Below are positions 6,576 to 7,596 of a DNA stretch of 64,000 bases, one piece after another. The first letter of the stretch is position 1. The number at the start of each line of letters is the position of its first letter. The position numbers were made by a program, and so were the translations under genes. Source of the DNA: Escherichia phage HX01. Below the pieces are notes generated by a model, which was not told the DNA's origin, did not search any database, and was given only the letters and a program-made list of their open reading frames with translations. The stretch lies in the sequence record NC_018855.1. One strand, written 5' to 3'.

Positions 6576-6624
6576 GTTTACATGTGCTTCAAACATGATA
6601 TTATAGACCTATCAAAACAAAACA
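6576..6624 (+). promoter_or_regulatory. promoter block upstream of 71-aa ORF (copy 1 of duplicated cassette)
   Basis: GTTTAC at 6576; TGCTTCA (MotA-box-like) followed by TATTAT; 37-nt block identical to 6907..6943. Confidence 0.55.
6585..6621 (+). repeat. 37-bp direct repeat, copy 1 (promoter block)
   Basis: TGCTTCAAACATGATATTATAGACCTATCAAAACAAA identical to 6907..6943; a second identical 22-nt block at 6631..6652 matches 6951..6972. Confidence 0.9.
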
Positions 6625-6643
6625 ACCAAATTGGAGAAATAAA

Positions 6644-6859
6644 ATGTCTAAAATGAAATTAACCCAAAACACAACTACTCGTTTTGGTAAAGTTAAACCT
6701 GGTATGAATGCTCCCCGTAAAGCACTTGTTGAAGAATTAAATTTCTTAGAAGTTGAAATCAATTCTTTAGTGGTTCGCGGTTCAAATGGACATCGTTTAG
6801 AAAAGCTTCGTTCTAAAAAGGCAAAACTTATTGGCCTTATTAAAGAAATGAGTTTGTAA
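6644..6859 (+). CDS. hypothetical protein (71 aa) sharing promoter/leader/first codons with motA
   Basis: ORF begins MSK with the same upstream 22-nt RBS region and 37-nt promoter block as motA. Confidence 0.5.
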   Translation: MSKMKLTQNTTTRFGKVKPGMNAPRKALVEELNFLEVEINSLVVRGSNGHRLEKLRSKKAKLIGLIKEMSL

Positions 6860-6897
6860 ATTTTACCAGGGCTTTTGGAAAAAGAGCCCAAAATAAA

Positions 6898-6946
6898 GTT
6901 TACTTTTGCTTCAAACATGATATTATAGACCTATCAAAACAAATAC
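6898..6946 (+). promoter_or_regulatory. promoter block upstream of motA (copy 2 of duplicated cassette)
   Basis: GTTTAC at 6898; identical 37-nt block TGCTTCAAACATGATATTATAGACCTATCAAAACAAA. Confidence 0.55.
6907..6943 (+). repeat. 37-bp direct repeat, copy 2 (promoter block upstream of motA)
   Basis: Identical to 6585..6621. Confidence 0.9.
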
Positions 6947-6963
6947 TAATTTGGAGAAATAAA

Positions 6964-7596
6964 ATGTCTAAAGTTACTTATATCATCAAAGCTTCTGAAA
7001 ACGCTCTGAATGAAAAAACTGCTGCAATAATGGTTTATATCATTAAGAACAACTTCACCACTGCTGCCAATGTCCGTGAAGCTCTGGAAGCGGAATACAA
7101 TGCATCGGTTGTTAACTCTAACATTGGTGTATTGATTAAGAAAGGTTTAGTCGAAAAATCTGGTGATGGACTTATAGCAACAGGCGAAGCAATGGATATT
7201 ATCCAAAAAGCTGCAGACCTCTTTGCCCAAGAAAATGCTCCAGAACTTCTTCAGAAACGTAACACTAGAAAAGCACGTGGAGTTACTCCTGAAATGCATG
7301 AATTAGCAAACTTTGTTTTTGAAAATATTAAAGATAAAGTTGAAGTTAAAGAAATTGGTGAAAACCGTAGTAACTTGGAAGTTCGATTTGCAAAACGAGT
7401 TCTAGGTATTCGTCAGATCGAAATTCGTCGAAATGGTTCTCTTAGAATCTTTGCATACAACATGTCAGAAACCGAATCAAAGCTGTTTACTTCTCTTGAA
7501 AATGATGTTAAGATTAAGATCGGTGGTAAATATACTTACATTGACTTCCCTAATGTGTCCAAAGAAATCATTACCCTTGTAACTAACGTACTGTGA
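6964..7596 (+). CDS. motA: middle transcription activator MotA
   Basis: 210 aa (T4 MotA about 211 aa), N-terminus MSKVTYIIKAS; synteny between 52 and asiA. Confidence 0.9.
   Translation: MSKVTYIIKASENALNEKTAAIMVYIIKNNFTTAANVREALEAEYNASVVNSNIGVLIKKGLVEKSGDGLIATGEAMDIIQKAADLFAQENAPELLQKRNTRKARGVTPEMHELANFVFENIKDKVEVKEIGENRSNLEVRFAKRVLGIRQIEIRRNGSLRIFAYNMSETESKLFTSLENDVKIKIGGKYTYIDFPNVSKEIITLVTNVL

Follow-up and report, generated by a model that had tools for sequence, protein, structure and literature searches.

Tandem PeSL-type promoter cassettes around a small accessory early gene in the 52-motA interval of a Mosigvirus phage

Introduction

The window, i.e., the complete stretch of 64,000 nucleotides analysed here, belongs to an RB69/JS09-like T4-type phage of the genus Mosigvirus. 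Between gene 52 and motA it holds a 71-aa ORF whose promoter, leader and start are nearly the same as those of motA itself, and the question raised by this locus is how two adjacent, unrelated coding sequences came to carry one set of signals. A previous sequence-only reading of the window had suggested, in answer, a recent duplication by which a new small gene was captured or created. The explanation favoured here, to which a probability of roughly 80% is assigned, is that two tandem cassettes of the PeSL type (Arbiol et al. 2010, PMC2839356) surround an old accessory early gene, and that the two copies evolve in concert and recombine with each other.

The 52-motA interval and its two cassettes

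The upstream side of the interval is formed by gene 52 (5133..6458, plus strand), which encodes the topoisomerase II medium subunit (Pfam DNA_topoisoIV, E 8e-78; gp52 in relatives) and which represents a conserved anchor upstream of a variable interval. Its stop codon is overlapped (TTGA overlap) by a 26-aa hydrophobic mini-ORF (6455..6535, plus strand), delineated from its translation and located in the position of T4 motA.1, while Dhakaviruses and phage pEK20 possess an unrelated 34-aa hydrophobic ORF in its place. The downstream side is formed by motA (6964..7596, plus strand), specifying the middle-mode transcription activator (Pfam MotA_activ, 1e-39, and MotCF, 5e-9; phrog_1345).

Cassette copy 1 (6567..6652, plus strand) was delineated by means of the repeat family D1/D2, a promoter scan and a leader fold. 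It comprises an AT-rich region upstream of a predicted strong promoter of the T4 early sigma-70 type, with -35 TTTACA (6577-6582), TGn (6596-6597) and -10 TATTAT (6599-6604), scoring 10/12 with TG in the scan, followed by a leader of ~32 nt that is predicted to be unstructured (-2.2 kcal/mol, z +0.2), a GGAG SD (6633-6636) and the start ATG-TCT-AAA (6644-6652). Cassette copy 2 (6889..6972, plus strand), recognized by the same combination of repeat, scan and fold, represents the promoter, leader and start of motA: AAAATAAAG precedes -35 TTTACT (6899-6904), TGn and -10 TATTAT (6921-6926), and the GGAG SD (6953-6956) leads to the ATG-TCT-AAA (6964-6972) with which motA begins. In both copies GGAG and ATG are separated by 7 nt, and both promoters have a 16-nt spacer (TTTACA-N16-TATTAT and TTTACT-N16-TATTAT), a length shared by at least two further early promoters in the window. 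A search of positions 6400-7050 for known RNA families returned no match at E values up to 1.

Stem-loop 1 (6534..6564, plus strand; MFE -12.9 kcal/mol, z -2.9) consists of the hairpin AGGGAGC-uucg-GCUCCCU, itself at 6534-6551 ahead of copy 1, with a U-rich tract after it; it carries a terminator annotation in PhAPEC2 and others, and an equivalent hairpin is present in T4. Judged from its sequence, this element is intrinsic-terminator-like, and would both close the gene 52 unit and constitute the SL part of cassette 1. Stem-loop 2 (6869..6889, plus strand; MFE -13.1 kcal/mol, z -2.8), the SL part of cassette 2, reads GGGCUUUU-ggaaa-AAGAGCCC and is followed on its 3' side by AAAAUAAAG, without a U tract. 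Its pairing is retained in 100% of cells across eight distinct sequences, with one compensatory pair (G-C to A-U), a degree of covariation that 25 of 500 shuffles equal. The same hairpin is found ahead of the motA promoter of EcS1, there behind an unrelated ORF.

The 37-nt block TGCTTCAAACATGATATTATAGACCTATCAAAACAAA occurs at 6585-6621 and again at 6907-6943, while the 22-nt block TTGGAGAAATAAAATGTCTAAA occurs at 6631-6652 and at 6951-6972; both are exact and lie where the sequence-only reading had placed them, although the whole repeat is longer than these two blocks, extending over 6567-6652 and 6889-6972; these two stretches are 84-91% identical and differ by a 2-nt indel inside the leader. 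Beyond its two places, neither block recurs in the 64-kb window at up to three mismatches; the chance expectation is 0, and 0 of 100 dinucleotide shuffles produced a match. Furthermore, in a comparison of 13 early-promoter-like sites of the window over a 46-nt core, the cassette pair is 93.5% identical, whereas the median is 42% and the runner-up reaches 74%. The likeness of the two cassettes is well above the level given by a shared promoter consensus, and the duplication that had been claimed is thus a true one. Likewise borne out are the common MSK start of ORF 6644-6859 and motA (6964-7596), and the proposal that the two genes share their expression signals, as promoter, leader, RBS and start are the same for both.

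The 71-aa ORF

The 71-aa early ORF (6644..6859, plus strand; phrog_6200) was assessed through its homologues, PHROGs match, dN/dS and a structure model. Homologues are present in 92 phage records, with amino acid identities of 95-100% in Mosigvirus and 72-77% in Dhakavirus; the ORF is located between 52 and motA in every locus inspected in these genera, and its length of 71 codons is retained in 11 further complete loci that were compared. Nucleotide identity of the ORF between Mosigvirus and Dhakavirus is only 70%, and dN/dS between the two is 0.15-0.24, at a pS of ~0.6, which is near saturation. By these sequence comparisons, the ORF is a protein-coding gene under purifying selection.

The sequence-only reading had described the product as basic and without a recognizable motif, which agrees with a pI of 10.6 (15 K+R versus 6 D+E) and with searches of Pfam and NCBIfam, neither of which gave a match. 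A PHROGs search returned phrog_6200 (function unknown) only, plus a marginal hit to phrog_4535 at an E value of 0.002. Among 5.8 billion proteins the homologues form eight clusters, all from close relatives, and a profile search of 1.84 billion representatives returned two members of the phrog_6200 family together with three long repetitive proteins, which look like coiled-coil noise and were rejected as homologues. In the AlphaFold model a disordered N-terminal tail precedes a helical hairpin, and Foldseek searches of BFVD and PDB with this model retrieved nothing beyond the Bp7 ortholog and generic two-helix matches.

Two further candidates were set aside. An antisense ORF (6601-6918, 105 aa) is interrupted by stops in JS09, Shf125875 and all Dhakaviruses, and was dismissed as a real gene, while a 71-aa ORF abutting motA in SP18 was dismissed as an ancestral homologue, being of the same length but unrelated in sequence (family phrog_17275).

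Presence, absence and junctions in related phages

An IMG/VR scan with MotA returned just two loci, which are near-identical, and the loci of relatives were taken from an annotated phage collection instead. MotA at 95% identity or above is found in 152 records, and the ORF is present in ~74 of the ~152 Mosigvirus records; similarly, 153 records match at 95% or above, only 74 of which span the ORF. RB69, JK45, AV115, pEK20 and two IMG/VR contigs are among those from which it is absent. Because the 71-aa gene is missing from about half of these close relatives, it is dispensable in those phages. The 52-motA site accommodates zero, one or two small ORFs depending on the phage: IME08 possesses three cassettes and two ORFs, the second of which belongs to phrog_13302, while unrelated cargo is carried at this site in other genera, the phages concerned being P545, ZX14, EcS1 and SP18.

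ORF-less Mosigviruses have a single chimeric cassette, the junction of which lies either within the 37-nt block or within the 22-nt block. In RB69 and pEK20, the copy-1 upstream sequence is joined to the copy-2 leader, while in JK45, AV115, L006 and L007 the copy-1 leader is joined to motA codon 4, a junction type also seen in many further records; the counts per junction type are estimates from sampled match lists, in which BLAST bridged the 2-nt leader indel. An independent chimera without the ORF is present in the Dhakavirus PSD2002. As sequences, these single cassettes are consistent with homologous recombination between the two copies. Both junction types occur within Mosigvirus, and at least one deletion is therefore required under any scenario, while some ORF-less genomes could in principle represent never-inserted lineages.

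Concerted evolution of the two copies

Sequence variants tend to be common to both copies of a genome or genus. Core position 14 is C in 12 of 12 Mosigvirus copies and T in 14 of 14 Dhakavirus copies, and VR5 has a private A at core position 8 in both of its copies, this signal being drawn from a 40-nt core with few variable sites. Between paralogous leaders, identity is 85% in Mosigvirus but 60% in Dhakavirus, and between orthologous leaders it is 67-73%. In addition, both leaders are of the copy-1 type in EP02SG and of the copy-2 type in ST2, while copy 2 of Bp7 holds the copy-1 SD-ATG spacer. The exact repeat measures 66 nt in ST2-like genomes and 37 nt in window-like ones. These sequence patterns indicate that the cassette copies co-evolve through gene conversion, and that they do so in both directions.

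The 22-nt block, with its identity of RBS, ATG and MSK, is confined to Mosigvirus. Dhakavirus ORFs begin with MNK and have a different leader, so that the MSK/RBS identity arose in a later conversion rather than in the founding event; a single conversion tract in the Mosigvirus lineage copied the RBS, ATG and MSK of motA onto the small gene. This identity is comparatively recent, and is the only part of the identity that is. The present identity of the copies is due to continuing gene conversion together with functional constraint, not to youth.

Age and origin of the gene and the duplication

The hairpin-AAAATAAAG-GTTTAC junction of the promoter duplication occurs in Dhakavirus as well as in Mosigvirus, so that the duplication is older than the split between these genera. 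It is at this point that the sequence-only reading fails: when the 52-motA intervals of related phages were compared, as it had proposed, the 71-aa ORF proved to be conserved and old, the outcome that this reading had itself named as refuting it. The capture or creation of a new small gene by a recent tandem duplication of the promoter, leader and start of motA would be in keeping with the 100% identity of the blocks, the MSK start of both ORFs and the confinement of ORF homologues to close relatives, but it is now very improbable, as the ORF has a promoter copy on either side in two genera, is represented in 92 records, and has diverged to 70% nucleotide identity under a dN/dS of ~0.2. That same 70% excludes a recent horizontal acquisition from Mosigvirus to Dhakavirus, the MNK start and different leader of Dhakavirus make the MSK/RBS identity a later conversion, and the conversion events in EP02SG, ST2 and Bp7 account for the identity of the copies. 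Selection for an optimal early promoter and RBS, operating with no recombination between the copies, might also keep them alike, given the long consensus regions common to T4-type early promoters (PMC2988021) and a motA cassette in Klebsiella Marfavirus phages that is ~90% conserved where MotA is just 65% identical. As the sole cause it is nevertheless unlikely, in view of other early promoters of the window that are ~42% alike over the same span, neutral-looking variants common to both copies of one genome, leader types swapped between positions, and the single chimeric cassettes of ORF-less relatives with their junctions in the repeat. Constraint probably contributes to the identity of the copies, but cannot account for the variant, leader and junction patterns.

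The explanation based on two old PeSL-type cassettes evolving in concert leaves room for more than one beginning, as the motA promoter may originally have been duplicated in situ, or an ORF cassette bearing a promoter may have been inserted, and the sequence gives no direction. Under the latter variant, which concerns origin only and is put forward tentatively, the ORF was brought in on a module with its own promoter (e.g., a PeSL mini-circle), which integrated by homologous recombination into a motA cassette that until then was single; the second copy resulted from this integration, and the ancestral state is represented by ORF-less genomes, e.g., that of T4. The single cassette of T4 matches copy 1 in its upstream half, the site takes up unrelated cargo that in each case comes with an early promoter of its own, the further ORF of IME08 is preceded by a copy-1-type leader, and integration of a mini-circle is the reverse of a demonstrated excision (PMC2839356). 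However, topology alone gives the same picture for duplication followed by deletion, the two single-cassette junction types in one genus need at least one deletion anyway, and the ORF occupies one place per record among the 92 records, with no free or transposed copy.

Expected expression and the MotA-box motif

Following T4 biology, host sigma-70 RNA polymerase would initiate at both promoters during the first minutes after infection, promoter 1 driving the 71-aa accessory early gene and promoter 2 driving motA. Since stem-loop 2 is without a U tract, some of the promoter-1 transcripts probably read through it into motA. With the same signals on both genes, joint expression and joint shut-off are expected. 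MotA is among the early products, and RegB cuts its mRNA in the SD (PMC2988021); a RegB, with the site consensus GG*AGRAYARAA, is encoded by RB69 (PMC3014915). The SD context of the cassettes, GGAGAAATAAA, agrees with 9 of 11 positions of the strong RegB consensus, and its GGAG is located in the predicted-unstructured leader. By analogy, RegB probably cuts inside GGAG and inactivates both mRNAs as it does that of T4 motA, which would produce a brief and co-ordinated burst of both proteins. Recombination between the cassette copies would lead to gain or loss of the gene.

Both spacers also contain TGCTT(C/T)A, as TGCTTCA in Mosigvirus and TGCTTTA in Dhakavirus, in both copies of all genomes examined. 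TGCTTYA equals the MotA-box core (PMC2988021), the motif is absent from the other early promoters of the window, and a close variant of the core, TGCTTTT, is found in the Klebsiella-phage motA cassette. Nevertheless, it is improbable that the motif is a MotA box which makes these middle or hybrid promoters, or else MotA-repressed operators. The MotA box, (a/t)(a/t)(a/t)TGCTTtA, takes the place of the -35 and keeps a distance of 12 +/- 1 bp to the downstream -10 (PMC2988021), whereas the motif ends 7 nt from the -10 and is displaced from the activating register by about half a helical turn; moreover, the 7-mer is common (59 occurrences in the window), the T4 motA promoter is devoid of it, and the canonical -35, TGn and -10 already account for the promoter. 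A MotA-dependent middle promoter was rejected on account of the spacing, the canonical -35 and the commonness of the motif. Similarly improbable is a scheme in which MotA binds TGCTTYA and shuts off both promoters by negative autoregulation, the 71-aa protein acts as a stoichiometric early-to-middle modulator, and selection together with recombination maintains the identity of the copies.

Implications

The locus represents a compact natural record of the gain and loss of a small early gene in T4-type phages. The published genomes hold every state that the PeSL model predicts, i.e., two copies with distinct leaders, two copies homogenised either way, two classes of single-copy chimera and a three-cassette expansion. 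Because conversion erases age, the identity of a short regulatory repeat is a poor clock. In practical terms, the interval offers a defined neutral insertion/deletion site beside motA for the engineering of RB69/JS09-type therapeutic phages, and phrog_6200 is flagged as a dispensable, co-regulated early protein.

Comparison with known systems

It is a general phenomenon that gene conversion makes short repeats, whether dispersed or in tandem, evolve in concert. The present locus resembles it in that paralogues within a genome are closer than orthologues between genera, and in that variants move between positions, while it differs in that the repeat is regulatory and only ~85 nt long, and in that its conversion tract extends over 9 nt of each of two coding sequences that are unrelated to one another. 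For T4, shuffling of the internal-protein locus is credited to Repoila 1994, a work cited in PMC4122927.

The motA region of T4 shares with this locus the terminator hairpin, an early promoter (GTTTAC...TAnnAT), a leader, a GGAG SD and an MSK start, and its upstream sequence TTCACAAAACGGTTTACA matches copy 1. T4, however, has one cassette and is without the 71-aa ORF, its spacer and leader sequences differ, and experimental RegB cleavage pertains to T4 motA only (Uzan et al.; PMC2988021, PMC3014915).

The closest parallel is provided by PeSLs, for which a definition, the deletion of an ORF between two such elements, and mini-circles were reported in RB49 and phi1 (Arbiol et al. 2010, PMC2839356), and for which the layout and the T4/PST promoter consensus TTTACW-N17-TAYWAT were described in the PST/T4 and nt-1/KVP40 comparisons (Comeau et al. 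2014, PMC4122927); early promoters are furthermore known to precede novel ORFs in RB69 (PMC1524935). Both have a stem-loop, an AT-rich stretch, a sigma-70-like early promoter, an SD and an ATG, with ~100 bp conserved. At the present locus hairpins lie ahead of both copies (6534-6551 and 6869-6889), the 3' end of each copy is the SD and start codon of the downstream gene, and the small ORF between the two cassettes is of unknown function and belongs to a variable region. As for ORF192 in RB49 versus phi1, ORF-less relatives possess one chimeric cassette, with crossovers between -10, SD and ATG and indel breakpoints inside the element. The locus differs from published PeSLs in that it adjoins the essential regulator motA, the downstream cassette being motA's own promoter, that the flanked ORF is conserved across two genera as opposed to being a one-phage orphan, that stem-loop 2 is without a U tract and may not terminate, and that the spacer is 16 nt as against 17 in the consensus. 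Terminator activity of the stem-loop, promoter activity and mini-circles are features of the published PeSLs, the cassettes described here being known from sequence. The 52-motA cassettes are members of this already described PeSL type, rather than a newly created gene or a new kind of system.

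A repeated early-promoter cassette upstream of motA

Two copies of a promoter-leader-start cassette are present between gene 52 (5133-6458; Pfam DNA_topoisoIV) and motA (6964-7596; Pfam MotA_activ and MotCF), copy 1 preceding a 71-aa ORF (6644-6859) and copy 2 preceding motA itself. These flanking genes, with an ndd-like ORF (4343-4789), mark the phage as T4-type, and Megablast assigns the window to the Mosigvirus group of RB69/JS09/ST0-like coliphages, with 98-99% identity. Both identical blocks from the sequence-only reading were recovered exactly where it had placed them, i.e., a 37-nt repeat at 6585-6621 and 6907-6943, and a 22-nt repeat at 6631-6652 and 6951-6972. 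A repeat finder widens the unit to 6567-6652 versus 6889-6972, with leaders differing by a 2-nt indel. Neither block has a third occurrence in the 64-kb window with up to three mismatches permitted, and shuffled sequences yielded zero matches to either. Scans with the T4-type pattern returned 13 (strict) or 17 (looser) early-promoter sites; the pair at 6577 and 6899 exhibits 93.5% identity across a 46-nt core against an all-pairs median of 42%, indicating a genuine repeat rather than a common consensus.

Copy 1 is preceded by hairpin 1 (AGGGAGC-uucg-GCUCCCU, 6534-6551; -12.9 kcal/mol, z -2.9), followed by a U-rich tract, and copy 2 by hairpin 2 (GGGCUUUU-ggaaa-AAGAGCCC, 6869-6889; -13.1 kcal/mol, z -2.8), with AAAAUAAAG downstream and no U tract. 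After the hairpin, both copies possess an AT-rich stretch, a -35 element (TTTACA or TTTACT), a spacer of 16 nt with TGn at its end, the -10 element TATTAT, a leader of ~32 nt without predicted structure (z ~ +0.2), and GGAG 7 nt upstream of an ATG followed by codons TCT AAA. This common layout of promoter, leader, GGAG and ATG-TCT-AAA bears out the proposal that the ORF and motA share expression signals.

The loop of hairpin 1 (6541-6544) reads TTCG in the window, as it does in JK45, AV115 and G53 (locus L019), and CGAA in RB69 (L008), JS09 (L016) and PhAPEC2 (L017); the entire palindromic hairpin appears flipped among close relatives. Homopolymer slippage was seen in the copy-2 leader, with CAAAAAAAAAAATAC in G53 (L019, ~1790-1805) and an A run 1 nt shorter in Shf125875 (L018).

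Both promoter spacers contain the MotA-box core TGCTTCA (6585-6591 and 6907-6913). A middle promoter was rejected, since the core lies 7 nt from the -10 element, a non-activating register where the definition needs 12 +/- 1; the heptamer is also present 59 times in the window. Both promoters keep the box core in Dhakavirus (TGCTTTA), and Marfavirus P545 has the close variant TGCTTTT. The core is absent from the T4 motA promoter.

The 71-aa ORF

A tblastn search identified the ORF in 92 phage records, with amino acid identity of at least 90% in 74 (Mosigvirus), 87% in one and 72-77% in 17 (Dhakavirus, including JS98, Bp7, IME08 and VR5), and its position in every locus inspected is between 52 and motA. 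The two genera share 70% nucleotide identity in the ORF, with pS ~0.6 (dS >1), pN ~0.21 and dN/dS of 0.15-0.24. Judged by these comparisons, the ORF is an old, real gene that is restricted to its lineage, and the suggestion of a newly created or captured small gene is not upheld. An overlapping antisense ORF (6601-6918) was discarded, as stops break its frame in JS09, Shf125875 and all Dhakaviruses. In ECCR664 (L004) the 71-aa ORF lacks a stop where expected, which suggests a frameshift or sequencing error.

The product (family phrog_6200) is basic (pI 10.6) and, as previously described, without recognisable motif, with no match in Pfam or NCBIfam. Its relatives comprise only eight close clusters among 5.8 billion proteins, and a search of 1.84 billion yielded just two representatives. 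AlphaFold (mean pLDDT 76) predicts a helical hairpin (H23-44 and H50-70) behind a disordered basic tail (residues 1-22) containing the invariant RFGKVKPGMN; fold searches with this model returned nothing informative.

Age of the duplication and concerted evolution

Two promoter copies around the ORF, and the same junction of hairpin 2, AAAATAAAG and GTTTAC, are also found in JS98, VR5, ABTNLsp5, Bp7, dhabil and C6. As layout and junction are common to Mosigvirus and Dhakavirus, the duplication, though genuine, predates the genus split; the check on related 52-motA intervals therefore refutes both a recent event and the birth of a new gene.

The two copies nonetheless resemble each other more closely (core identity 0.93-0.96 between paralogs) than their counterparts in the other genus (0.89-0.92 between orthologs). 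Core position 14 is C in 12/12 Mosigvirus and T in 14/14 Dhakavirus copies, VR5 carries a private A at core position 8 in both copies, and the Dhakavirus variants ...AAACATGATACTATAG and ...AAACGTGTTATTATAG occur at either cassette position. These patterns argue that concerted evolution maintains the identity of the two copies. Conversion can be read directly from three genomes: both leaders are of copy-1 type in EP02SG (a 56-nt exact repeat) and of copy-2 type in ST2 (a 66-nt exact repeat), while in Bp7 the copy-1 SD-ATG spacer is located upstream of motA. The Bp7 record splits motA (L012, 1822-2456) into two CDS (1822-2031 and 2031-2456), reflecting either a frameshifted gene or a sequencing error.

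Sharing of the 22-nt RBS/ATG/MSK block by the two genes is confined to Mosigvirus; in Dhakavirus the ORF begins MNKMK, with GAAATGGAGAtACAAAATG as its leader, and motA has TTATCGGAGATTAAAATGTCTAAA. Because MotA starts with MSK in T4, Dhakavirus and Mosigvirus alike, the Mosigvirus ORF most probably acquired its RBS, ATG and Ser-Lys codons from motA via a conversion tract.

ORF-less relatives and chimeric junctions

MotA is matched at 95% identity or more in 152 records. The interval is matched at that level in 153, but just 74 of these cover the ORF, so it is missing from about half of Mosigviruses, and its protein is dispensable in about half of the close relatives. RB69, JK45, AV115, pEK20 (whose MotA is 100% identical to that of the window) and two IMG/VR contigs have the order 52, single cassette, motA, the one cassette being chimeric in either of two ways. 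In RB69 and pEK20 its upstream region comes from copy 1 and its leader (CAAAACAAATACTAATTTGGAG) from copy 2, corresponding to a crossover inside the 37-nt block. In JK45, AV115 and two further loci (L006 and L007), the copy-1 leader (CAAAACAAAACAACCaAATTGGAGAAATAAAATGTCTAAA) is joined to motA codon 4, corresponding to a crossover inside the 22-nt block; this junction is common, at an estimated one third of sampled rows. An independent chimera without the ORF occurs in Dhakavirus PSD2002. In T4, copy 1 is matched by the upstream half (TTCACAAAACGGTTTACA) of the only cassette present.

Three cassettes are found in IME08, where a further, unrelated ORF of 73 aa (MKTLNINSFFYNANTDH..., phrog_13302; L013, 1717-2120) is inserted between the 71-aa ORF and motA behind a copy-1-type leader; the third promoter copy has a degraded -35 region (ATATACAAAGGTCTATGATAATGTTATTATAGACC). 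In pEK20, the gene 52 unit has an end of Dhakavirus type, which is joined at the terminator to a Mosigvirus cassette, a mosaic junction at the element. Taken from these genomes, the evidence indicates that the repeat serves as a recombination substrate in nature.

Other cargo at the 52-motA site

Comparison of further genera indicates that the 52-motA site is a cargo slot there also. P545 (Marfavirus; L020, 779-1426), ZX14 (Kanagawavirus; L021, 766-1422) and EcS1 (Kagamiyamavirus; L022, 398-1051), i.e., Klebsiella, Enterobacter and Escherichia phages, encode here a conserved ~215-aa protein (phrog_10840) with a HELAHAL (HExxH, metalloprotease-like) motif, from a gene with its own early promoter with TGCTTT. 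In EcS1 hairpin 2 recurs downstream of an additional ORF of 87 aa, and Gaprivervirus SP18 carries an unrelated 71-aa ORF (phrog_17275).

In every lineage, a tiny hydrophobic ORF overlaps the gene 52 stop by TTGA or ATGA (window 6455-6535; L001 1288-1392; L005 2231-2380, minus strand). It encodes 26 aa in the window and RB69, 49 aa (motA.1) in T4 and, in Dhakaviruses and Mosigvirus pEK20, 34 aa of unrelated sequence, with no sequence conservation among the lineages compared, and looks like a membrane mini-protein of constant position and variable sequence.

Relationship to T4 expression signals and PeSL cassettes

In T4, MotA is made early and RegB cuts its mRNA within the SD (PMC2988021). Strong RegB sites have the consensus GG*AGRAYARAA, and RB69 encodes a RegB (PMC3014915); the cassette sequence GGAGAAATAAA fits this consensus at 9/11 positions. 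Extrapolating from T4, both promoters would be active as soon as infection begins, some promoter-1 transcripts would pass hairpin 2 and add to those of motA, and RegB together with early-promoter shut-off would stop expression of both genes together. What the sequences establish directly is the repeat structure, how old the ORF is and that it is under selection, the concerted evolution of the copies, natural chimeric junctions within the repeat, and the variability of cargo at the site.

A second adjacent cassette pair (38283-38865; -35 elements at 38340 and 38783) has the next-best core identity in the window (74%) and flanks a 122-aa ORF (phrog_1507, 38409-38777). Both cassettes end in GGAGAATAAAATG, an 11/11 fit to the strong RegB consensus, and the first is preceded by a terminator, GGGAGACTTCGGTCTCCC then TTTTGTGCGTTT, that nearly matches that of copy 1. 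In a further PeSL-like element (23331-23440), the hairpin GGGAGACTTCGGTCTCCC and its T tract are followed by GTTTACTT...GTTAGTATAGACCTATCAA, then by GAGG and an ATG at 23438; the element and the motA cassettes have the 14-mer TATAGACCTATCAA in common.

In RB69, 13 of 57 predicted early promoters stand before novel ORFs (Nolan et al., PMC1524935). The promoter-early stem-loop (PeSL) cassette published for T4-type phages runs from a stem-loop through an AT-rich stretch and an early promoter to the SD and ATG, with ~100 bp conserved. In the published cases an ORF lies between two PeSLs in one phage and the related phage has one chimeric PeSL, crossovers were mapped between -10, SD and ATG, and mini-circles are excised (PMC2839356, PMC4122927). 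The window cassettes match this architecture and behaviour, with two flanking copies here and a chimeric single copy in relatives, and the feature thus belongs to the already known PeSL kind, of which it is a well-documented case.
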